A DNA stretch of 6,647 bases from Nanobdellota archaeon (GTDB lineage Archaea; Nanobdellota; Nanobdellia; Pacearchaeales; GW2011-AR1). The DNA lies in assembly GCA_018901625.1 (NCBI GenBank), contig JAHIEM010000099.1, positions 1-6,647 on the forward strand. The letters run 5' to 3'. Positions 1 through 6,647 of the stretch are shown here, in pieces (the first letter of the stretch is position 1; every line of letters begins with the position of its first letter). The position numbers and the translations under genes are program-made. The notes beneath the pieces were generated by a model that saw only the letters and a program-made list of their open reading frames with translations, was not told where the DNA came from and made no database searches.

Positions 1-382
1 CATTTGAGATGTCTTGGGATACTGTTCGGATAGTACACTCTTTTTCATTCTGTTCTGCAATAACAAATCCTATGAATGCGTTCTTGATTATCTCTCCTAT
101 TGTTTTTACAGCAGAGAGATTGTCGTATTTTATTTTTATTATGTCACATCCCATTTTATACAAGCTCGCAAGATACCATCCAGTTGTCCTGTTGTTTAAA
201 TTGCTTATGTCAATCTCTATCTTTTTCTCTTCTTTTTTTCCTCTTCCTCCAATTACCAGCTCGCTTCCTCTCTCTTCCACATCTATCTCATCGCCTTTCT
301 TTATGCCCTGCTGCTTTACCCATTTTGAGGGTAAACTAACCACGATTGTCTGTTTTGCGAGCTGGATTGCTTTTCTTTTCAT
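1..382 (-). CDS. AbrB/SpoVT-domain DNA-binding protein; N-terminal 127 codons only, the 3' end runs off the left edge
   Basis: This ORF is not in the supplied track because it has no stop in the window. My reverse-complement translation from the ATG at 382-380 gives MKRKAIQLAKQTIVVSLPSKWVKQQGIKKGDEIDVEERGSELVIGGRGKKEEKKIEIDISNLNNRTTGWYLASLYKMGCDIIKIKYDNLSAVKTIGEIIKNAFIGFVIAEQNEKECTIRTVSQDISN, and the frame stays open to position 2. The stretch 'VVSLPSKWVKQQGIKKGDEIDVEERGSELVI' fits the SpoVT/AbrB (MazE-like) swapped-hairpin signature. A TATATAAA box on this strand (404-411) ends 21 nt before the ATG. The plus-strand ORFs listed here are low-complexity antisense shadows. Confidence 0.7.
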   Translation of the reverse strand, partial: MKRKAIQLAKQTIVVSLPSKWVKQQGIKKGDEIDVEERGSELVIGGRGKKEEKKIEIDISNLNNRTTGWYLASLYKMGCDIIKIKYDNLSAVKTIGEIIKNAFIGFVIAEQNEKECTIRTVSQDISN

Positions 383-403
383 AAATTAGTAAATTAGAAG
401 GAA

Positions 404-411
404 TATATAAA
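404..411 (-). promoter_or_regulatory. Archaeal TATA box for the minus-strand AbrB-like gene
   Basis: The plus strand reads tatataaa, which is tttatata on the minus strand. Exactly 21 nt separate the box from the ATG at 382. The plus-strand boxes at 463-470, 3003-3010 and 6218-6225 have the same 21-nt geometry. Confidence 0.5.
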
Positions 412-423
412 TTTATCTGTTTT

Positions 424-456
424 TATATACTATAAGGTAGTATATATACTTTAAGG
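424..456. repeat. Two copies of a 14-nt direct repeat in the divergent promoter region (TATATACTATAAGG and TATATACTTTAAGG)
   Basis: The copies lie at 424-437 and 443-456. They match at 13 of 14 positions and start 19 nt apart, between the two divergent TATA boxes. This makes them a candidate operator. Confidence 0.4.
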
Positions 457-462
457 AAAAGA

Positions 463-470
463 TATATAAA
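463..470 (+). promoter_or_regulatory. Archaeal TATA box for the four-gene operon
   Basis: The sequence is tatataaa and ends 21 nt before the ATG at 492. This implies a leaderless first cistron. Confidence 0.5.
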
Positions 471-491
471 CTTTCTGTAGTTAGTCTTTTT

Positions 492-812
492 ATGAAAAGT
501 AAAGTTTTGCTTGGAATCTTGTCATTTGGGATTCTTTTTCTTGTTTTAGTCAGTTCTATTGAAGGTGTAACTGCTGTTAGTTTCAGCAAGGGGGATCTTG
601 TTAAGGTTATCAATGCAGGAAGTATAGGTCTTGCGGTGAGAGGTCCGACTGCTTGCAGTCCATCTTTGCAAAAGGCAAGATATGATGGTTACACTGGGTA
701 TGTAATGGACGGGCCAGATAGCAGTTGTGGGGACGGGTATACTCGTTGGAAAATACACTGGGATATTGATAGTGTTGAGGGTTGGACTATTGATACTTAT
801 GGAGGCAACTGA
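492..812 (+). CDS. Small secreted protein with a bacterial-SH3-like (SH3b / SH3_3-type) domain
   Basis: This is the 106-aa track ORF. The N-terminus MKSKVLLGILSFGILFLVLVSSIEGVTA looks like a signal peptide, with a Lys-rich n-region followed by a hydrophobic core. The mature part, GDLVKVINAGSIGLAVRGPTACSPSLQKARYDGYTGYVMDGP...GYTRWKIHWDIDSVEGWTIDTY, follows the SH3b pattern (G-D-x-V, hydrophobic-x-V-R-x-G-P, G-x-x-G-x-V, W-x-(V/I), G-W). It has two Cys residues (C55 and C79 of the precursor). Confidence 0.6.
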   Translation: MKSKVLLGILSFGILFLVLVSSIEGVTAVSFSKGDLVKVINAGSIGLAVRGPTACSPSLQKARYDGYTGYVMDGPDSSCGDGYTRWKIHWDIDSVEGWTIDTYGGN

Positions 813-815
813 AAA

Positions 816-1238
816 ATGGTACGAGCATTAGTTGTTGAGGACCATGATAAATGGCAAAAGTTTCATAAAAATTGTCTAGAATCTATTTTAGGAAAAGGAA
901 GTGTAGATATTGCAAATAATTACGAGGATGCTATCTCTATGTTAAATCAAGATTATGGGGTGTATATCATAGATGGGCAATTTCTCAGATGTCCTGATGG
1001 TGACCTACAGGTATTGGGAATTCAATTAGCCAAAGAAATTGGAAAGAAAGAAGGTAGTTATGATAAAATTGTAATGGTAAGCAGCAGCGAGGATAGTTTA
1101 TCCAGAGCGCAAAGACTAGGAATAACCCAAGTTTATAATAAATTTTCTCTAAATGCTGACGAAAATGAAGTTGGTGTTTTTTCACGAGATTTGAGGGCTT
1201 TTTTATTAGATACTGAAGCTACTTTATGTGCGGGTTAA
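816..1238 (+). CDS. Stand-alone CheY-like receiver (REC) domain protein with no output domain
   Basis: The ORF encodes 140 aa. GGAGG at 801-805 lies 10 nt upstream of the ATG, and the start is 3 nt after the upstream stop. The REC landmarks are in register: acidic pocket E8-D9 (ALVVEDHD), putative phospho-acceptor D53 (VYIIDGQF), S89-S91 at the end of beta4 (IVMVSSS), and K109 (VYNKF). Confidence 0.75.
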   Translation: MVRALVVEDHDKWQKFHKNCLESILGKGSVDIANNYEDAISMLNQDYGVYIIDGQFLRCPDGDLQVLGIQLAKEIGKKEGSYDKIVMVSSSEDSLSRAQRLGITQVYNKFSLNADENEVGVFSRDLRAFLLDTEATLCAG

Positions 1239-1244
1239 ATTAAG

Positions 1245-2348
1245 ATGATAGACAAAAATTTTGAAGCAACCAAAAGCAGACATTCAGATATATCTGATTT
1301 GGAATTACATTTTTATAACATGAAATATCGGGGAATAAATGACTCTGTAATGGAGTCTGGAGGTGATAGACCAATTTTTTATCTTTTTGATGACAAAAAT
1401 TTTGGGTTGATTTCGTTTATGCTTTCTGAAGATTCTCCTTATAGGATACATAAAGACCGGATACTGTTTAATGATGAAGAATTAAATTTCAGGAATATTC
1501 TTTTTACTCGTTTAGGAAATACATTGCCGTATTATTATTTTAGAGGACCTCATGGAATGTTTCCAAGTTTGCAGGATAGTAAAATTCTTAATGTAAATTT
1601 TAATCCTAAATGCGGCGGATGTGACTTTTGTTTTTACGTATACAGGACTAAACAACTAGAAAATATCACTCCCCAACAAGGTTTTAAAAAAATTGAAGCA
1701 GAAACAGGATTAAATGAACTTAGCTGCCTGGATGAGATAGCTATTGTTACTGGGAGATTTGAATCTGAGGATATGTTAAAAGTTCACATTTTGGATGTAA
1801 TCAATCAGGCAGAAGAAAGAGGATTTGATGGAAGAATTTTTTATATTGGATCACAGTTGGTGACTCCTAGTTGTATAGGGGAAATTTCAAAGAGATTAAA
1901 AAATGATTCAGATAGGTTCAGGTGTGCTTATACTATTGAACGATTCTTTGATAGAAGTTCTATCATGCATGGATCTAAAGGAAAGAAAGATTATCCCGAG
2001 ATATTAAGTGATATGAAAAATCTTAAGAATCTTGGCGTAGGCAAATTAGAGTATACTTATCTTGTAGGTATTGAGGACTTTGATGAATTTAAACAAGGTG
2101 CTGAGGAATTAGTTCATATCGCTATACCTCATATCTCTATTCTGAGAAAGACAGGTCGAAATGCAAATCAATTAACATTGTCAAGGGATTATGTTGAAGG
2201 CGGGCCTGATTATATCTGCCAGATAAGAAAACATTATGAGGATTTATACGGTGGCAAGATTATAGGAAATAATTTTGCGAATCTATGGCTTTTTCCGATT
2301 AGTGACTTTAATTTTTCATCTTATTTAAATCGCTTATCTTCAGTTTGA
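1245..2348 (+). CDS. Radical-SAM-like enzyme with a non-canonical CX2CX2C cluster motif and a roughly 110-aa N-terminal extension of unknown function
   Basis: The ORF encodes 367 aa and starts 6 nt after the REC stop. ILNVNFNPKCGGCDFCFYVY (C123, C126, C129; nt 1611-1631) sits after a beta-strand, as in radical SAM enzymes, and keeps the aromatic residue before the last Cys. However, the first spacing is 2 residues rather than 3. Downstream there are alternating strand-like segments (EIAIVTGRFE, RIFYIGSQL, RCAYTIERF, LEYTYLVGIEDF, IPHISILRKTG) consistent with a partial TIM barrel. There is no C-terminal Cys cluster, so no SPASM or twitch domain. The gene call is firm and the family call is tentative. 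Confidence 0.6.
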   Translation: MIDKNFEATKSRHSDISDLELHFYNMKYRGINDSVMESGGDRPIFYLFDDKNFGLISFMLSEDSPYRIHKDRILFNDEELNFRNILFTRLGNTLPYYYFRGPHGMFPSLQDSKILNVNFNPKCGGCDFCFYVYRTKQLENITPQQGFKKIEAETGLNELSCLDEIAIVTGRFESEDMLKVHILDVINQAEERGFDGRIFYIGSQLVTPSCIGEISKRLKNDSDRFRCAYTIERFFDRSSIMHGSKGKKDYPEILSDMKNLKNLGVGKLEYTYLVGIEDFDEFKQGAEELVHIAIPHISILRKTGRNANQLTLSRDYVEGGPDYICQIRKHYEDLYGGKIIGNNFANLWLFPISDFNFSSYLNRLSSV

Positions 2349-2380
2349 AATTCAATAATTGTAAGGGGGTAAATGAAAAA

Positions 2381-2938
2381 ATGGGAAACTATAAAACAAC
2401 AAACACTACGGGTGCATCAGATGTTTTATTTGGGATACGCACATCTAAGGCAGAAGATCGTCGTACTGGAGAAGCTGGAAGGGGAGCAGGATTTACACAA
2501 GATGAAGCTGACAAAAGTGCATTTAGTCATCTTAAAGGAGCAGATCCTAATGATTCTCGTTATGAGGGGGGCGATAGTGGCGAAGGTTCTGGAGGAAGTT
2601 CGGGAGGAGATTCTGGAGGAAGCTGCTGTTATGTAACAACTGCATGTTTAGACGCACTGGGTTTGCCGAGAGATTCGCTGGAAATGAGAGCAATGAAAAC
2701 TCTCACAAGAGAGCATATACTCAAATCCTTTAGTGGAAAGAGAGATTATGTTTTGTACGGAAGAAAAGGACCTTTAATTGTTCAGGCAATAGGAGCAAGA
2801 GAAGATTCTCAAGGAATCTGGAAACGGATTTATGAAAAATTGCAAGATGTAACTTCTAGTGTTTTGTCTAGTAACTATGAGAGAGGTCATCAACTGTATA
2901 AAGAGTTAATCTTAGGACTAGAGGCGCAATTTGTCTGA
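2381..2938 (+). CDS. Bipartite protein of unknown function: a disordered Gly/Ser/Asp-rich N-terminal half (residues 1-81) joined to a helical C-terminal domain that begins CCYVTTAC
   Basis: The track ORF starts at a TTG at 2345. I prefer the ATG at 2381, because AAGGGGGT at 2363-2370 lies 10 nt upstream of it. This gives 185 aa: MGNYKTTNTTGASDVLFGIRTSKAEDRRTGEAGRGAGFTQDEADKSAFSHLKGADPNDSRYEGGDSGEGSGGSSGGDSGGS-CCYVTTACLDALGLPRDSLEMRAMKTLTREHIL.... By hand count, roughly four fifths of third codon positions in this frame are A/T and first positions are G-rich. That supports this frame over the overlapping frame at 2373-2636. Confidence 0.7.
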   Translation: MGNYKTTNTTGASDVLFGIRTSKAEDRRTGEAGRGAGFTQDEADKSAFSHLKGADPNDSRYEGGDSGEGSGGSSGGDSGGSCCYVTTACLDALGLPRDSLEMRAMKTLTREHILKSFSGKRDYVLYGRKGPLIVQAIGAREDSQGIWKRIYEKLQDVTSSVLSSNYERGHQLYKELILGLEAQFV

Positions 2939-2950
2939 TAATACAATTTA

Positions 2951-2972
2951 TTCTTTTTTTCTTTTTTTCTTT
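2951..2972 (+). terminator. Oligo-T terminator region after the four-gene operon
   Basis: Two T7 runs (2954-2960 and 2962-2968) follow directly after the stop at 2938. Archaeal RNA polymerase terminates at oligo-T tracts. No comparable tract lies between genes 1 to 4. Confidence 0.5.
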
Positions 2973-2992
2973 GGTTCAATCTCGCTTGAACC
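2973..2992. promoter_or_regulatory. Perfect 7-bp inverted repeat GGTTCAA-N6-TTGAACC, a candidate operator just upstream of the ArsR-type gene promoter
   Basis: ggttcaa (2973-2979), tctcgc, ttgaacc (2986-2992). It ends 10 nt before the TATA box at 3003-3010. Dimeric wHTH regulators typically bind dyads of this kind. A terminator hairpin is the alternative reading. Confidence 0.35.
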
Positions 2993-3002
2993 TATCAAAC
3001 TG

Positions 3003-3010
3003 TTTATAAA
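3003..3010 (+). promoter_or_regulatory. Archaeal TATA box for the wHTH/SIMPL operon
   Basis: The sequence is tttataaa and ends 21 nt before the ATG at 3032. The ATG at 3023 is only 12 nt away, which argues for 3032 as the leaderless start. Confidence 0.45.
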
Positions 3011-3031
3011 TCTCAATTATCTATGTTTTTT

Positions 3032-3613
3032 ATGAATAATAAATACGTGCTGGTTTCATTTGATGATGAGAGAATGAAGAGCATTTCTGAGGTTTTAGGA
3101 AATGCGTCGTGCAAGAAGATTTTGAACTTGCTGGCTGAGAGGAACTCATCTGAAACTGATATTTCTCGCGAGTTGGGAATGCCTCTGAATACAGTTGGGT
3201 ATAATGTTAAAAAATTAGTTGAAGCTGGGCTGATTGAGAGAGCAGAACATTTCTGGAGTGTGAAGGGGAAGAAGATACCTGTTTATAGAGTTTCTCAGAA
3301 ATCAATTGTTATTTCTCCTAGGCAGAAAACAAAAACTGCACTAAAATTGCTTCCTGTTCTGATAGTTTCTGGAATAGCAGCTCTACTGATAAGGTTCTTT
3401 AGTTTTTCTGAAAAAGCGATGTTATCTGTTAATGACAAGGTTGCGGGGGCGAGTTTAGAATCTGCTCCTTCTGCTGGTGTTAATTTGGCAAGTTATTCTT
3501 TATGGGACAAGATAATTTCCCTGCCTGCTTGGGAGTGGTTTTTAGCTGGGGCTTTATTCTCTTTGATTGTTTATTTTGTTTTTAGTCTAATAGCTGAAAG
3601 GAGGAAATTTTAG
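3032..3613 (+). CDS. Membrane-anchored ArsR-family winged-helix transcription regulator-like protein
   Basis: The ORF encodes 193 aa from MNNKY. The track start at 3023 would add MFF. The N-terminal wHTH region is ISEVLGNASCKKILNLLAERNSSETDISRELGMPLNTVGYNVKKLVEAGLIERAE...KKIPVYRV (ArsR / HTH_5-like). Two hydrophobic helices follow: LKLLPVLIVSGIAALLIRFF and WEWFLAGALFSLIVYFVFSLIA. Confidence 0.75.
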   Translation: MNNKYVLVSFDDERMKSISEVLGNASCKKILNLLAERNSSETDISRELGMPLNTVGYNVKKLVEAGLIERAEHFWSVKGKKIPVYRVSQKSIVISPRQKTKTALKLLPVLIVSGIAALLIRFFSFSEKAMLSVNDKVAGASLESAPSAGVNLASYSLWDKIISLPAWEWFLAGALFSLIVYFVFSLIAERRKF

Positions 3614-3614
3614 A

Positions 3615-4355
3615 ATGGAAAAATCAGTTCAAATAACTTTGATAATTGCTGCTGCTATAATCATAGTTGCGCTTATTGGGGTATACTCCTTTTTCCAGGT
3701 TATGCCTGTAACTAGGAATACTGTGAATGTTCAGGGAACTAGCCAGGTTAAGGCTGTTCCTGACTTAGTTAGTTTGTATTTCTCTGTGCAGACTCAAGGA
3801 ACTAGCAGCCAGGAAGCTAATGATAAGAACTCGGAGATTGTTGATAATGTTATTACTAACTTAGTCAAGCTGGGATTTGAGAGAAAGGAGATAACTACTG
3901 AAGGATTTAATGTTTATCCTGATTATTCCTGGAGCAGTGGGCAACAGAAACTTATTGGATATAAAGCATCTCATAATATCAAGCTAGAGATGTCAACTTC
4001 TAGAACTGATAAAATCGGTGGAGCTATTGATGCTGGCGTAGATGCAGGGGCATTAGTAAGATATATTAATTTTGAGTTGAGTGTTGAAAAACAAAATGAG
4101 TATAAGGCTCTTGCTTTGAAACAAGCTTCAGAAGATGCGAGAATAAAAGCTGAATCTGTTGCTAGTGGATTAGGAAAGAGAGTTGGAAGCTTGGTTTCAG
4201 TATCTGTGTCAGATTTTGGATATTCTCCTTGGGCTCTATATAGCAATGATGCTATGGTTTCAGGAGCAGCAGAGGCAAAATCAGCAACTACAAGCATACA
4301 GCCTGGAGAAAAAGACATAAACGCAAATGTTCAGGCAGTTTTCAGCCTCAAGTGA
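3615..4355 (+). CDS. SIMPL (DUF541) domain protein with an N-terminal membrane anchor
   Basis: The ORF encodes 246 aa. GGAGG at 3600-3604 lies 10 nt upstream of the ATG, and the start is 1 nt after the upstream stop. The N-terminal TM segment is ITLIIAAAIIIVALIGVYSFF. The SIMPL hallmarks are present: V.G......PD......FSV......A.EA, YPDY, GY.ASH...L, ALKQASEDARIKAE..A..LG and the C-terminal IQPGEKDINANVQAVFSL. Confidence 0.8.
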   Translation: MEKSVQITLIIAAAIIIVALIGVYSFFQVMPVTRNTVNVQGTSQVKAVPDLVSLYFSVQTQGTSSQEANDKNSEIVDNVITNLVKLGFERKEITTEGFNVYPDYSWSSGQQKLIGYKASHNIKLEMSTSRTDKIGGAIDAGVDAGALVRYINFELSVEKQNEYKALALKQASEDARIKAESVASGLGKRVGSLVSVSVSDFGYSPWALYSNDAMVSGAAEAKSATTSIQPGEKDINANVQAVFSLK

Positions 4356-4363
4356 AAGACATA

Positions 4364-4380
4364 AATTTTTATTAATTTTT
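4364..4380 (+). terminator. Oligo-T tracts after the SIMPL gene
   Basis: The sequence aaatttttattaattttt has T5 runs at 4366-4370 and 4376-4380, directly after the stop at 4353-4355. Confidence 0.4.
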
Positions 4381-4399
4381 GTATGTCTTTCCCAGGATG

Positions 4400-4691
4400 T
4401 CAAAATCGTAAGATTTTGAGCACTGTCAGAACCTCAAAGTCGCAAACGAGTTAGTTTCAGCGTCATTTGCTATGAGATAATTTTTTACTATTTCTTTTAT
4501 TTTTTATTTTTATTTAGTTAGTCTAAAGAAAACCTACTGAACGTGCAAATATAACAATTCACCTATAATCCTATTTAGACTTCAAAAATCCTTGACCCTC
4601 CTTGTTTGAACATGGAGTTGCGTTGGATTTTTGACAGTGTTCAAGAACCGCACGGCGTTTCACGCCTTGGACTTCAGTCCACGGTTCTTGA
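4400..4691. repeat. Cluster of related perfect palindromes and an inverted repeat flanking an AT-rich tract. Unclassified; it could be a structured RNA, a MITE or IS remnant, or a protein-binding array
   Basis: Hairpin A is TCAAAATC (4400-4407), GTAA, GATTTTGA (4412-4419). Hairpin B1 is TCAAAAATCC (4582-4591), 33 nt, GGATTTTTGA (4625-4634). Hairpin B2 is TCAAGAACCG (4641-4650), 31 nt, CGGTTCTTGA (4682-4691). The B2 loop itself folds into GGCGT-TTC-ACGCC (4654-4666) and TGGAC-TTCA-GTCCA (4668-4681). The arms of A, B1 and B2 are mutually similar. An inverted repeat, TTGAGCACTGTCA (4416-4428) and TGACAGTGTTCAA (4632-4644), matches at 12 of 13 positions. The tract at about 4475-4530 is almost pure A/T. 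Confidence 0.5.
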
Positions 4692-4740
4692 CATAGGTTA
4701 AAGAATAGATTGTCAGCTTCTGCTTGATTTTTAGATATCT

Positions 4741-4748
4741 TTTTATAT
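4741..4748 (+). promoter_or_regulatory. Archaeal TATA box for gatD
   Basis: The sequence is ttttatat and ends 20 nt before the ATG at 4769. This supports 4769 as the start rather than the upstream TTG at 4724. Confidence 0.4.
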
Positions 4749-4768
4749 CTTCATTGTTTGTGTTTTTC

Positions 4769-6034
4769 ATGGAAGCAAAACCCGGGGATAGAGTCAGCAT
4801 CAGAACAGTTCACGAGACTTTAGAGGGAACTCTAGTTGAGAGCTATGAGGCGGGAATTGTTTTATTGAAATTAAGAAATGGGTATAATTTTGGAATTAAG
4901 AAAGAAGACATAGTTTCTATTGATTTAATTGGCAAGAAAAAAGAAGGCAAGAAAAAAGAAGCTAGGAAAGTTAATTCAAAACTTCCAAATGTTGATGTGA
5001 TAATCACTGGGGGAACTATTTCATCAAGAGTTGATTATCAGACCGGGGGTGTTAAGTGGCTTACTAATCCTGAAGAGTTATTTGAACTATATCCTGAGAT
5101 TTTTGAGATTTGCAATGTAAGGAAAGTTGAGATTCCGTTTATGAAAGCGAGTGAGAATATGGATTATAAAGATTGGCAGGAGATTGCCAAGATTTGCGAG
5201 AAGAGCCTGAATGATGGTGACTGCGAGGGAGTTATAATTACTCACGGAACTGATTTCTTGCATTATACTGCTGCTGCTCTTAGTTTCTTTTTAAAAGATT
5301 TAAACAAGCCTGTTGTTCTAACTTACTCACAGAGAAGTTCAGACAGGGCTAGTTCAGATGCTGCTCTAAACCTGCAGTGCGCTGCGAGAGTTGCTTGTTC
5401 AGATATTGCAGAGGTTGTTTTAGTTGGGCACGCATCTAGTAATGATGATTTCTGTTATGCTTTGCGGGGGAGCAAGGTTAGAAAACTGCATTCTTCAAGA
5501 AGAGATGCATTCAAGCCAGTGAATACCATGGCTATTGCCAGAGTTTTTCCTGATAGGATTGAAACAATTACCGGGCATAGAACTAGAGATGATAACAAGA
5601 AGGTTAAATTAGACGATGGCTTTAATGATAAAATTGCTCTGATTAAGTTTTATCCTGGTATGGACCCTGAGATATTTGATTTTTTATCAACAAGATACCA
5701 TGGTGTTGTGATTGAGGTTTCTGGATTGGGGCATCTGGCTATTGATGAGGCTAGGAAAAATTTACTGCCTGCTATTAAACGAGCTATTGATAATGGGCTG
5801 ATTGTTTGCGCAGCCTGCCAAACTGTTTATGGAAGACTTGATCCATTAGTCTATTCACCTGGCAGAAAGCTAATGAATTATGGCATAATCTTTCTTGGGG
5901 ATATGCTTGCTGAGACTGCTTATGTTAAATTGGGGTTTGTTTTAGGGCATCGCCAGTGGAAGACGAAGGAACAAATAAGAGAGAAGATGCTTGAGAATAT
6001 TTCTGGAGAGTTTAATAATAGGCTAGAAGGGTGA
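4769..6034 (+). CDS. gatD: Glutamyl-tRNA(Gln) amidotransferase subunit D (archaeal GatD)
   Basis: The ORF encodes 421 aa from MEAKPGDRVSIRT. It has a small N-terminal beta domain, then a Lys-rich linker, then an asparaginase-like domain. That domain carries the nucleophile motif VIITGGTISSRVDYQTGGV and a second motif VIITHGTDFL. The domain order and length are typical of GatD. The 15 residues added by the TTG at 4724 (MIFRYLFISSLFVFF) overlap the TATA box and are probably not translated. Confidence 0.92.
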   Translation: MEAKPGDRVSIRTVHETLEGTLVESYEAGIVLLKLRNGYNFGIKKEDIVSIDLIGKKKEGKKKEARKVNSKLPNVDVIITGGTISSRVDYQTGGVKWLTNPEELFELYPEIFEICNVRKVEIPFMKASENMDYKDWQEIAKICEKSLNDGDCEGVIITHGTDFLHYTAAALSFFLKDLNKPVVLTYSQRSSDRASSDAALNLQCAARVACSDIAEVVLVGHASSNDDFCYALRGSKVRKLHSSRRDAFKPVNTMAIARVFPDRIETITGHRTRDDNKKVKLDDGFNDKIALIKFYPGMDPEIFDFLSTRYHGVVIEVSGLGHLAIDEARKNLLPAIKRAIDNGLIVCAACQTVYGRLDPLVYSPGRKLMNYGIIFLGDMLAETAYVKLGFVLGHRQWKTKEQIREKMLENISGEFNNRLEG

Positions 6035-6217
6035 CTAAGAGATAGAGAACCTATTAACTGCTATCTGTTGGAGAAAAATTATCTGCTCATAAATATCAGG
6101 GGCGATTGTTTGACAATTAATTAAGGGGGGGTTATTCTTTTGGTTTTAAGCATAGTCGCTAAGAAGTCCATATCCTAAATCGCAATTAGGTTATGGATGA
6201 ATTGGAAAATAGAAAGG

Positions 6218-6225
6218 TATATAAA
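6218..6225 (+). promoter_or_regulatory. Archaeal TATA box for the small RHH-like ORF and tnpB
   Basis: The sequence is tatataaa and ends 21 nt before the ATG at 6247, the same geometry as the other promoters. It lies inside the alternative longer ORF from the ATG at 6193, which argues against that start. Confidence 0.45.
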
Positions 6226-6246
6226 GGCATTGTGTGTCTATTGTGT

Positions 6247-6366
6247 ATGAAACAAAGAACGAATATACAAATAGAACATAAAACTTTAGAAAAACTAAAA
6301 AAGTTAAGAATCACGAAAAGAGAAACTTATGACGAAATAATAAATCGTTTGATGAAACAAAAATGA
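6247..6366 (+). CDS. 39-aa ribbon-helix-helix-like (CopG / antitoxin-like) small protein
   Basis: This ORF is not in the track because it is too short. The sequence is MKQRTNIQIEHKTLEKLKKLRITKRETYDEIINRLMKQK. It reads as a short beta-strand (TNIQIE), helix 1 (HKTLEKLKKL) and helix 2 (ETYDEIINRLM), which matches an RHH layout. Its TGA stop (6364-6366) overlaps the tnpB ATG (6363-6365) as ATGA. Confidence 0.5.
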   Translation: MKQRTNIQIEHKTLEKLKKLRITKRETYDEIINRLMKQK

Positions 6367-6647
6367 CAACAACTTATAAATTCAGATTATACCCAAAAAA
6401 AGAACAACTAGACAAGTTAGACTTGTCTCTGGAAATTTGCAGACAGACTTATAATAATCTTCTCGCAGGACTTGATGAAAGATATACAAAAAATGAACTG
6501 CAAAACTATTTGCTCGATTTGAAAGTTGTAAATCCTGAAATGAATAATGTTTATTCTAAAGTCTTGCAGATGGAAAATCAAAGACTATTCTCAAACCTAT
6601 CATCACTTTCACAAAGAAAAAAACAAGGAAATAAAGTTGGAAGATTA
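6363..6647 (+). CDS. tnpB: IS200/IS605-family TnpB (OrfB) RNA-guided endonuclease; N-terminal 95 codons, truncated by the right edge of the window
   Basis: My translation is MTTTYKFRLYPKKEQLDKLDLSLEICRQTYNNLLAGLDERYTKNELQNYLLDLKVVNPEMNNVYSKVLQMENQRLFSNLSSLSQRKKQGNKVGRL, and the frame is open to the window end. 'YKFRLYPxxxQ....L......R..YN' is the hallmark N-terminus of OrfB/TnpB (HTH_OrfB_IS605 region). The later stretch 'S...Q........S......' is typical of the start of the WED/REC part. Confidence 0.85.
   Translation, partial: MTTTYKFRLYPKKEQLDKLDLSLEICRQTYNNLLAGLDERYTKNELQNYLLDLKVVNPEMNNVYSKVLQMENQRLFSNLSSLSQRKKQGNKVGRL

Follow-up and report, generated by a model that had tools for sequence, protein, structure and literature searches.

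Can a cysteine motif that is one residue too short still hold the cluster with which radical S-adenosylmethionine (SAM) enzymes cleave SAM? The question is raised by a stretch of 6,647 nucleotides (nt) from a Nanobdellota archaeon (assembly GCA_018901625.1, contig JAHIEM010000099.1, positions 1 to 6,647; "the window" hereafter means this whole stretch), in which a gene for a 367-residue protein carries the motif CX2CX2C, with two residues between its first two cysteines and not the three of CX3CX2C. The original prediction, made from the letters of the DNA, had left two alternatives, either an unusual way of binding the SAM-cleaving [4Fe-4S] cluster or a protein outside the radical SAM superfamily. 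The barrel fold, the triad of cysteines, which is the only conserved one, and an alignment with a single gap to CX3CX2C relatives support the former. We regard the product as a true member of the superfamily with a cluster loop shortened by one residue, at a probability of roughly 70%; cluster binding and SAM cleavage are predicted from sequence and structural model. The gene and its relevant parts are the following.

1245..2348, forward strand: gene encoding the short-motif member of the radical SAM superfamily, an ATG-started open reading frame (ORF) of 367 residues.
1245..1580, forward strand: family-specific N-terminal domain, residues 1-112, three helices followed by beta strands, conserved family-wide.
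1584..1595, forward strand: predicted barrel strand beta-1, LNVN, residues 114-117, directly 5' of the cluster loop (assigned by DSSP; L115 and N116 nearly invariant).
1611..1631, forward strand: CX2CX2C motif C123-G-G-C126-D-F-C129, the putative ligands of the SAM-binding [4Fe-4S] cluster (sequence and conservation).
1746..1769, forward strand: V168-T-G-R-F-E-S-E175 at the C-terminal end of beta-2 (residues 164-168), in the position of the GGE motif (conservation and DSSP).
1929..1955, forward strand: Y229-T-I-E-R-F-F-D-R237 on and after beta-4, the family signature Y-T-x-E-x-F-x-x-R (conservation).
2052..2078, forward strand: Y270-T-Y-L-V-G-I-E-D278 on beta-5, in the position of the radical SAM GxIxGxxE-type motif (Y272 and G275 invariant).

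The reading of positions 1611-1631 as tgc ggc gga tgt gac ttt tgt, or C-G-G-C-D-F-C, was borne out and is in frame with ORF 1245-2348 (codons of G125 and F128 at 1617-1619 and 1626-1628). Equally correct were the count of seven cysteines in the protein (residues 123, 126, 129, 161, 210, 227 and 325) and the absence of an auxiliary-cluster motif. The residues that follow C129 are FYVYRT, with no fourth cysteine three residues on and no proline. When seven cysteines were placed at random in 367 positions, 305 of 200,000 trials (about 0.15%) contained a CX2CX2C, and because the spacing is conserved we consider its presence in this protein as more than chance. A single-base sequencing error, which had been named as a possible explanation, is excluded because it would shift the frame and because the same spacing recurs in more than 100 independent assemblies. 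The G+C content of the window is 35.9%, and neither tRNA nor Rfam matches were found in it.

The fold places the protein among radical SAM enzymes. Its AlphaFold2 model (predicted local distance difference test, pLDDT, 86; predicted template modelling score 0.87) has a (beta-alpha)6 core, the six units of which span residues 114-335 according to DSSP on the model (beta-6 at residues 294-299), and the cysteine loop lies between beta-1 and the first helices. In a Foldseek comparison with the PDB the top 23 matches are all radical SAM enzymes (E 1.3e-5 to 2e-3), led by LipA (5exk, E 1.3e-5) and including a radical SAM methyltransferase, HydG, NosL, lysine 2,3-aminomutase, HemN, BlsE, HydE, SkfB, SuiB, MiaB and AprD4, while ordinary triose-phosphate isomerase (TIM) barrels such as HisF and xylose-isomerase-like proteins rank from the 24th place down. 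The lack of a fold match to radical SAM barrels, by which the assignment was to fall, is thus not what we observe.

Sequence comparison leads to the superfamily by way of relatives. A plain sequence search of the PDB with the window protein gave no match, and against the Pfam Radical_SAM model (PF04055), with which the original prediction suggested a comparison, the outcome was divided: the window protein itself remained without a match, whereas three homologues (P0129, P0131 and P0166) score 32.5-34.7 bits, above the gathering cut-off of 29.5. Weak matches to this model occur in five of 22 close homologues (best E 9.6e-7), and 21 of 28 relatives that carry CX3CX2C match it (best E 1e-10). The family profile aligns with a profile of these 28 relatives over 340 columns (hhalign, probability 100%, E 1.3e-57), and in the motif the sole difference is a one-column gap between Cys1 and Cys2. 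The family profile likewise matches a viperin-like radical SAM protein (9dfu, E 0.004) over beta-1 and the cysteine loop, again with one gap between Cys1 and Cys2, and the profile of the CX3CX2C relatives matches biotin synthase and Cfr in the PDB. A further match of the window protein, to AbiP (E 5e-4, residues 214-282), is weak and local and was disregarded; Pfam, NCBIfam and PADLOC yielded no meaningful assignment of this protein.

A word-indexed search of 5.8 billion proteins returned 25 homologues, of which 22 were aligned (25-77% identity), and an exhaustive hidden Markov model (HMM) search of 1.84 billion cluster representatives returned 237 clusters at E <= 1e-3. All 22 aligned homologues keep C123 and C126, and all but one keep C129, the exception being P0019 with a local deletion; the other four cysteines are unconserved. 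The three cysteines therefore do not show the want of conservation that would have spoken against a radical SAM enzyme. No further invariant Cys or His that might act as a fourth ligand was found in the family alignments.

The short spacing predominates throughout the family. CX2CX2C was found in 102 and CX3CX2C in 44 of 148 motif-covering sequences retrieved by the HMM search, in 138 and 29 of 167 near-full-length sequences used for a tree, and in 59 and none of 60 distinct genomic or metagenomic loci (the remaining locus has a truncated ORF). Altogether, about 140-170 sequence clusters carry CX2CX2C, almost always in the form C-x-G-C-x-Phi-C, and the majority of them are labelled "hypothetical protein". 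Of 166 CX2 sequences, 159 have Gly before Cys2, whereas among 44 CX3 sequences only 19 do. The aromatic residue noted before the third cysteine of the window protein (F128) is Phe in 160 of the 166 CX2 sequences. In a sister clade (L028-L038) this residue is Trp (CKGCDWC); here the family gene consistently occurs together with a B12-binding radical SAM gene and one for a 291-residue protein.

Whether homologues keep CX2CX2C or revert to CX3CX2C has no single answer: most keep the short form, and a few nested ones carry the longer. P0018, which is 49% identical to the window protein, reads CSGGCDFC, the canonical CX3CX2C, and it sits, like the lone CX3 sequences P0035, P0080 and P0090, within CX2 clades of the neighbour-joining tree. 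On this tree of 167 sequences parsimony needs at least six switches of loop length, from which both lengths appear to be functional in one protein family. The canonical spacing is absent from the window protein, as it is from other accepted members of the superfamily.

The remaining motifs of the protein are conserved as well. The segment IVTGRFE (residues 167-173, nt 1743-1763), suggested earlier as the GGE-like SAM-binding motif, is indeed conserved and located at the GGE position, although its sequence is not GGE; the alignment of 22 homologues shows no variation at V168, T169, G170 and F172 and hardly any at E175, and CX3CX2C relatives keep the V-T-G-x-F..E motif as well. The beta-4 signature is retained even in the most distant relatives; its F234 and R237 are invariant, and its Y229, T230 and E232 nearly so. 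All three motifs (VTGxF..E on beta-2, YTxExFxxR on beta-4 and YxYxxGxE/D on beta-5) are common to the CX2 and CX3 groups, and the beta-5 segment of the CX3CX2C relatives aligns to Cfr (9p0p) in the PDB.

The N-terminal domain has two residues that are invariant in every alignment (G30 and S64), two more that are invariant in the full-length alignment (Y98 and R100) and four nearly invariant ones (H22, K27, R42 and P43). Modelled alone, the domain reaches a pLDDT of 85.9 and has no significant match among PDB folds (best E 1.4). It possibly serves substrate recognition. A peptide substrate is unsupported, as the domain has no fold match to the PqqD-like precursor-recognition domains of peptides that are ribosomally synthesized and then modified post-translationally.

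In the mechanism we propose, C123, C126 and C129 would ligate three irons of the [4Fe-4S] cluster, and the fourth iron would be free to chelate SAM because a conserved fourth ligand is lacking. The near-invariant Gly before Cys2 probably permits a tighter turn. F128 would contact the adenine like the usual aromatic residue, and V-T-G-x-F..E at the end of beta-2 may fill the role of GGE. Once the cluster is reduced, SAM would be cleaved and a 5'-deoxyadenosyl radical formed, which may act upon a small substrate enclosed by the barrel on one side and the family-specific N-terminal domain on the other. In this archaeal clade the enzyme may be regulated by a co-transcribed CheY-like receiver.

The family is spread over archaea and bacteria. 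Close relatives of the window protein are encoded in genomes of Candidatus Pacearchaeota and Woesearchaeota, and more remote CX2CX2C proteins were found in Aenigmatarchaeota, Streptomyces and Christensenellales, each labelled "hypothetical protein". Such CX2CX2C proteins are likewise present in 39 plasmid records (30 from Clostridium perfringens, five from Streptomyces, three from Nocardia and one from Mycobacterium); among the 15 plasmid records listed, two are annotated as "radical SAM protein", one has no annotated feature at the match and the others are hypothetical. The C. perfringens protein reads CNGCKFC and the Nocardia protein CTGCVFC. No phage relatives were found. The distant CX3CX2C relatives P0129, P0131 and P0083 include very long fusions, in which the radical SAM part is joined to a histidine-kinase ATPase domain (1624 residues), to a methyltransferase and HD (1378 residues) or to a transporter of the major facilitator superfamily (875 residues).

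For the substrate we turn to the genomic surroundings of the relatives, in which neighbours within 4 kb were clustered over the 60 distinct loci.

GrpB (PF04229): 17 of 60 loci, in 15 of them as the next gene downstream in the same orientation, with an overlap or a gap of at most 28 nt.
Class I methyltransferases: 16 of 60 loci.
Protein of 291 residues without a name: 9 of 60 loci.
HAD phosphatases: 8 of 60 loci.
Xylose-isomerase-like TIM barrels: 8 of 60 loci.
B12-binding radical SAM protein: 8 of 60 loci.
CheY-like receiver: 5 of 60 loci.
PHP domain proteins: 5 of 60 loci.
Tyrosine-phosphatase-like proteins: 5 of 60 loci.
Split ComDE/Ppd-like thiamine decarboxylase: 4 of 60 loci, below the NCBIfam cut-offs for sulfopyruvate and phosphonopyruvate decarboxylase.

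The 15 loci with GrpB directly downstream include L021, whose protein is 72% identical to that of the window, and in at least ten further clusters GrpB is fused at the N-terminus. The flanking genes in Woesearchaeota loci encode P-loop kinases (AAA_33) and histidine phosphatases. An analogy to Elongator, suggested by Kti12-like kinase and methyltransferase neighbours, was dropped, since the kinases fit AAA_33 better than KTI12 and an acetyltransferase domain is lacking. In Streptomyces, Nocardia and C. perfringens the gene is accompanied by a phosphoketolase-family protein, a methyltransferase and a HAD phosphatase, together with a PHP or an enolase-superfamily protein depending on the organism, and in C. 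perfringens this set lies inside a small cluster of adenylation and acyl carrier protein (ACP) genes. The latter is represented by L089 on a mobilizable plasmid of about 70-75 kb (NZ_CP075936.1, 30445-45503, with 29 similar records), where the order is BtrH-N, adenylate-forming enzyme, ACP, HAD, adenylation-domain protein, CX2CX2C radical SAM protein, phosphoketolase-family protein, PHP and methyltransferase; no product of this cluster is reported in the literature searched. An operon of the radical SAM gene, the split ComDE/Ppd-like decarboxylase, one or more methyltransferases and a HAD phosphatase is conserved in four loci (L014 7086-8161, L016 3775-4829, L018 4980-6061 and L019 7083-8154), and no phosphoenolpyruvate mutase was found within 6 kb of these operons; the decarboxylase would act on a 3-substituted pyruvate.

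Because phosphoryl, nucleotidyl and methyl transfer recur among these partners and fusions, the substrate is possibly a phosphorylated small molecule, nucleotide-like or sugar-phosphate-like, an assignment in which our confidence is low. In its widest form, our interpretation would make the window protein the founding example of an undescribed radical SAM family of DPANN archaea, Actinomycetota and Clostridium plasmids, in which a CX2CX2C motif with an obligatory Gly binds the SAM-cleaving cluster. Its members might then perform the radical step of a conserved module, composed of the radical SAM protein with GrpB and/or a thiamine-dependent enzyme, a methyltransferase and a phosphatase, that makes a modified nucleotide-like or sugar-phosphate-like metabolite. 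This wider proposal is tentative, and we rate its chances at somewhat below even.

In the window the immediate partner is a receiver gene.

816..1238, forward strand: single-domain CheY-like receiver of 140 residues, ending 6 nt before the radical SAM start codon (Pfam and PDB alignment).

Its match to Pfam Response_reg (E 8.5e-6, 26.3 bits) is below the cut-off of 30.2, and it aligns to the PDB receiver 5lwk (E 3.7e-5). E8, D9, D53, S89/S90 and K109, at the CheY positions, are invariant in three orthologues. Orthologues are located directly upstream of the radical SAM gene in L001, L004, L009 and L022, sometimes overlapping its start codon, and divergent copies occur in L010 and L007. It is a matter of speculation whether the receiver exerts phosphorylation-dependent control over the enzyme or acts as an adaptor. 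A stand-alone receiver paired with an enzyme is unusual for an archaeon with a reduced genome.

Several observations weigh against a radical SAM enzyme of the kind proposed here. The window protein matches neither Pfam Radical_SAM nor any other Pfam or NCBIfam model at E <= 1, and its membership consequently rests on fold and transitive homology. The fold matches have modest TM-scores (0.32-0.45 on the query), and within the model confidence is lowest in the cluster loop (pLDDT 60-67, residues 121-140). The equivalent of GGE is degenerate (TGxF), and Ala stands before Cys3 in a large sister clade, e.g., L054-L088 (CGGCTAC, CAGCKAC; 22 of the 60 loci), which is a second departure from the canonical SAM pocket. 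With regard to the substrate, the partner genes vary between clades, which weakens the inference drawn from them, and in the window no kinase, methyltransferase or GrpB partner adjoins the gene.

Some of these observations could be accommodated by a radical SAM fold and cluster with a non-canonical chemistry, in which the shorter loop re-orients SAM so that another S-C bond is cut (yielding a 3-amino-3-carboxypropyl or methyl radical, as in Dph2 or ArsL), or in which SAM is only a methyl donor or cofactor, as in TsrM. The deviation in spacing is systematic and accompanied by a near-invariant Gly, TGxF stands in place of GGE, the change from Phe to Ala in a large clade suggests an adenine pocket free of the canonical constraint, and TehB- and ArsM-like methyltransferases are found in the same operons. 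We nevertheless consider this chemistry unlikely: CX3CX2C and CX2CX2C interconvert within one family while the other motifs remain unchanged, which argues for the same chemistry, and there is no specific sequence sign of an altered regiochemistry. A non-catalytic role has a slimmer chance. The protein would then be an Fe-S sensor or regulatory module, the cluster of which reports redox, oxygen or iron status through the adjacent receiver or, in relatives, through fused histidine-kinase ATPase domains. To this would fit the tight coupling of the receiver gene upstream in this archaeal clade, the HATPase_c domain in the distant relative P0129, a HATPase_c_2 gene directly upstream in Streptomyces and a GGDEF-domain gene in the Nocardia operon; most relatives, however, have no signalling partner and are located in operons of metabolic enzymes, and the barrel-lining YTxExFxxR, K245 and YxYxxG are as strongly conserved as an active site would be. 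Least probable of all appears to us a degenerate relative or a structural metal site, that is, a cluster-free barrel enzyme whose cysteines bind zinc or nothing. The missing direct match to Pfam Radical_SAM and the presence of HisF and xylose-isomerase-like TIM barrels among the lower-ranked fold matches would be compatible with it, but all matches with E <= 1e-3 and the next five are radical SAM enzymes before the first ordinary TIM barrel appears, the motif coincides exactly with the radical SAM cluster position, and in archaea and bacteria alike purifying selection acts strongly on the three cysteines, the preceding Gly and the flanking hydrophobic position. We therefore retain the reading of a radical SAM enzyme with a contracted cluster loop.

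The other genes of the window are as follows.

492-812, forward strand: small secreted protein of 106 residues with a signal-peptide-like N-terminus.
2345-2938, forward strand: Gly/Ser-rich, Cys-containing ORF of 185-197 residues, the likely true start being the ATG at 2381.
3023-3613, forward strand: ArsR/MarR-type helix-turn-helix protein, the hydrophobic C-terminal half of which suggests membrane segments.
3615-4355, forward strand: SIMPL/DUF541 protein.
4724-6034, forward strand: archaeal Glu-tRNA(Gln) amidotransferase subunit GatD (NCBIfam, 452 bits); the listed TTG start is probably upstream of the real start.

The small secreted protein resembles the N-terminal domain of a 713-residue, Cys-rich Peptidase_M23 protein in the Pacearchaeota relative L001 (7140-9281), whose gene sits downstream of the radical SAM gene there; this likeness points to local gene shuffling between close relatives. 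In ORF 2345-2938 a Gly/Ser-rich linker leads into a conserved C-terminal domain starting with CCYVTTACL; the ORF has no Pfam, NCBIfam or PADLOC match. It was rejected as a substrate or conserved partner of the radical SAM protein: a clear orthologue follows the radical SAM gene in L009 (5115-5678) and is absent from L001, L004 and L021. Neighbouring genes in relatives include GatE-type GatB, the TATA-binding protein, LSM and ribosomal protein S8e. GatD in the window points to an archaeal origin, and together with these neighbours it agrees with a DPANN archaeon as the source.

What is newly recognised here is an unannotated radical SAM family with a shortened, probably Gly-dependent loop for a predicted cluster. 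Textbooks give CX3CX2C as the signature of radical SAM enzymes, and annotation pipelines look for it; a large clade that alternates between the short and the canonical loop suggests that the cluster site tolerates contraction. The shorter loop may partly explain why such proteins are labelled "hypothetical" in Streptomyces, Nocardia, Mycobacterium, C. perfringens plasmids and DPANN archaea. The family constitutes a natural experiment on how loop geometry affects SAM binding and draws attention to a conserved, uncharacterised biosynthetic module, one component of which is GrpB, itself poorly understood. As some members belong to cultured bacteria, the question is tractable.

In the literature searched we found neither CX2CX2C as a radical SAM motif nor a one-residue contraction at the normal site, and likewise no association of GrpB or phosphoketolase with this family. 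NCBIfam has no model that covers it. NF045502 ('variant_rSAM') and NF050148 (rSAM_ApyD) give weak local matches around the motif in some members, and the former was rejected as an existing model of the family, as only two of 42 members match it, with at best 19.5 bits against a cut-off of 125. Prokaryotic viperins often adjoin nucleotide-type kinases and phosphatases, and so do members of this family. The viperin-like structures 9dfu and 9dfn are the best sequence-level match of the family profile in the PDB, over only about 40 residues at the E of 0.004 given above. Identity with viperins was rejected: the match is local, the N-terminal domain is different, the fungal viperin 6b4c ranks 43rd in the fold list, and no viperin model of PADLOC matches the window protein.

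Departures from CX3CX2C are also known in variants of QueE and Elp3. To our knowledge, the spacing variants described so far lengthen the segment between Cys1 and Cys2 or, in ThiC, carry the motif on a C-terminal domain of its own. ThiC with CX2CX4C and HmdB with CX5CX2C are known non-canonical radical SAM spacings (PMC4389238). Unlike these, the loop of the window protein is one residue shorter at the normal position. The same spacing as in the window protein is found in ferredoxins, where the CX2CX2C segment of CX2CX2CX3C ligates three irons of one cubane, and the spacing is therefore geometrically able to bind a cluster. In contrast to the ferredoxin-type motif CX2CX2CX3CP (named in PMC9431491), the window protein lacks a fourth Cys, the Pro, the ferredoxin fold and a Fer4 Pfam match, and its motif occurs once instead of twice; its cluster is expected to be site-differentiated, unlike that of ferredoxin. 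Compared with canonical radical SAM enzymes (PF04055; LipA 5exk, HydG 4wcx, NosL 4r33, lysine 2,3-aminomutase 2a5h and biotin synthase), the window protein is set apart by its two residues between Cys1 and Cys2, its own N-terminal domain, which has no solved structural relative, and the YTxExFxxR signature, but it shares with them the (beta-alpha)6 partial barrel, a cysteine triad following beta-1 in which Cys3 is preceded by a hydrophobic or aromatic residue, the Gly-containing motif at the end of beta-2 and the G-x-x-E/D on beta-5.

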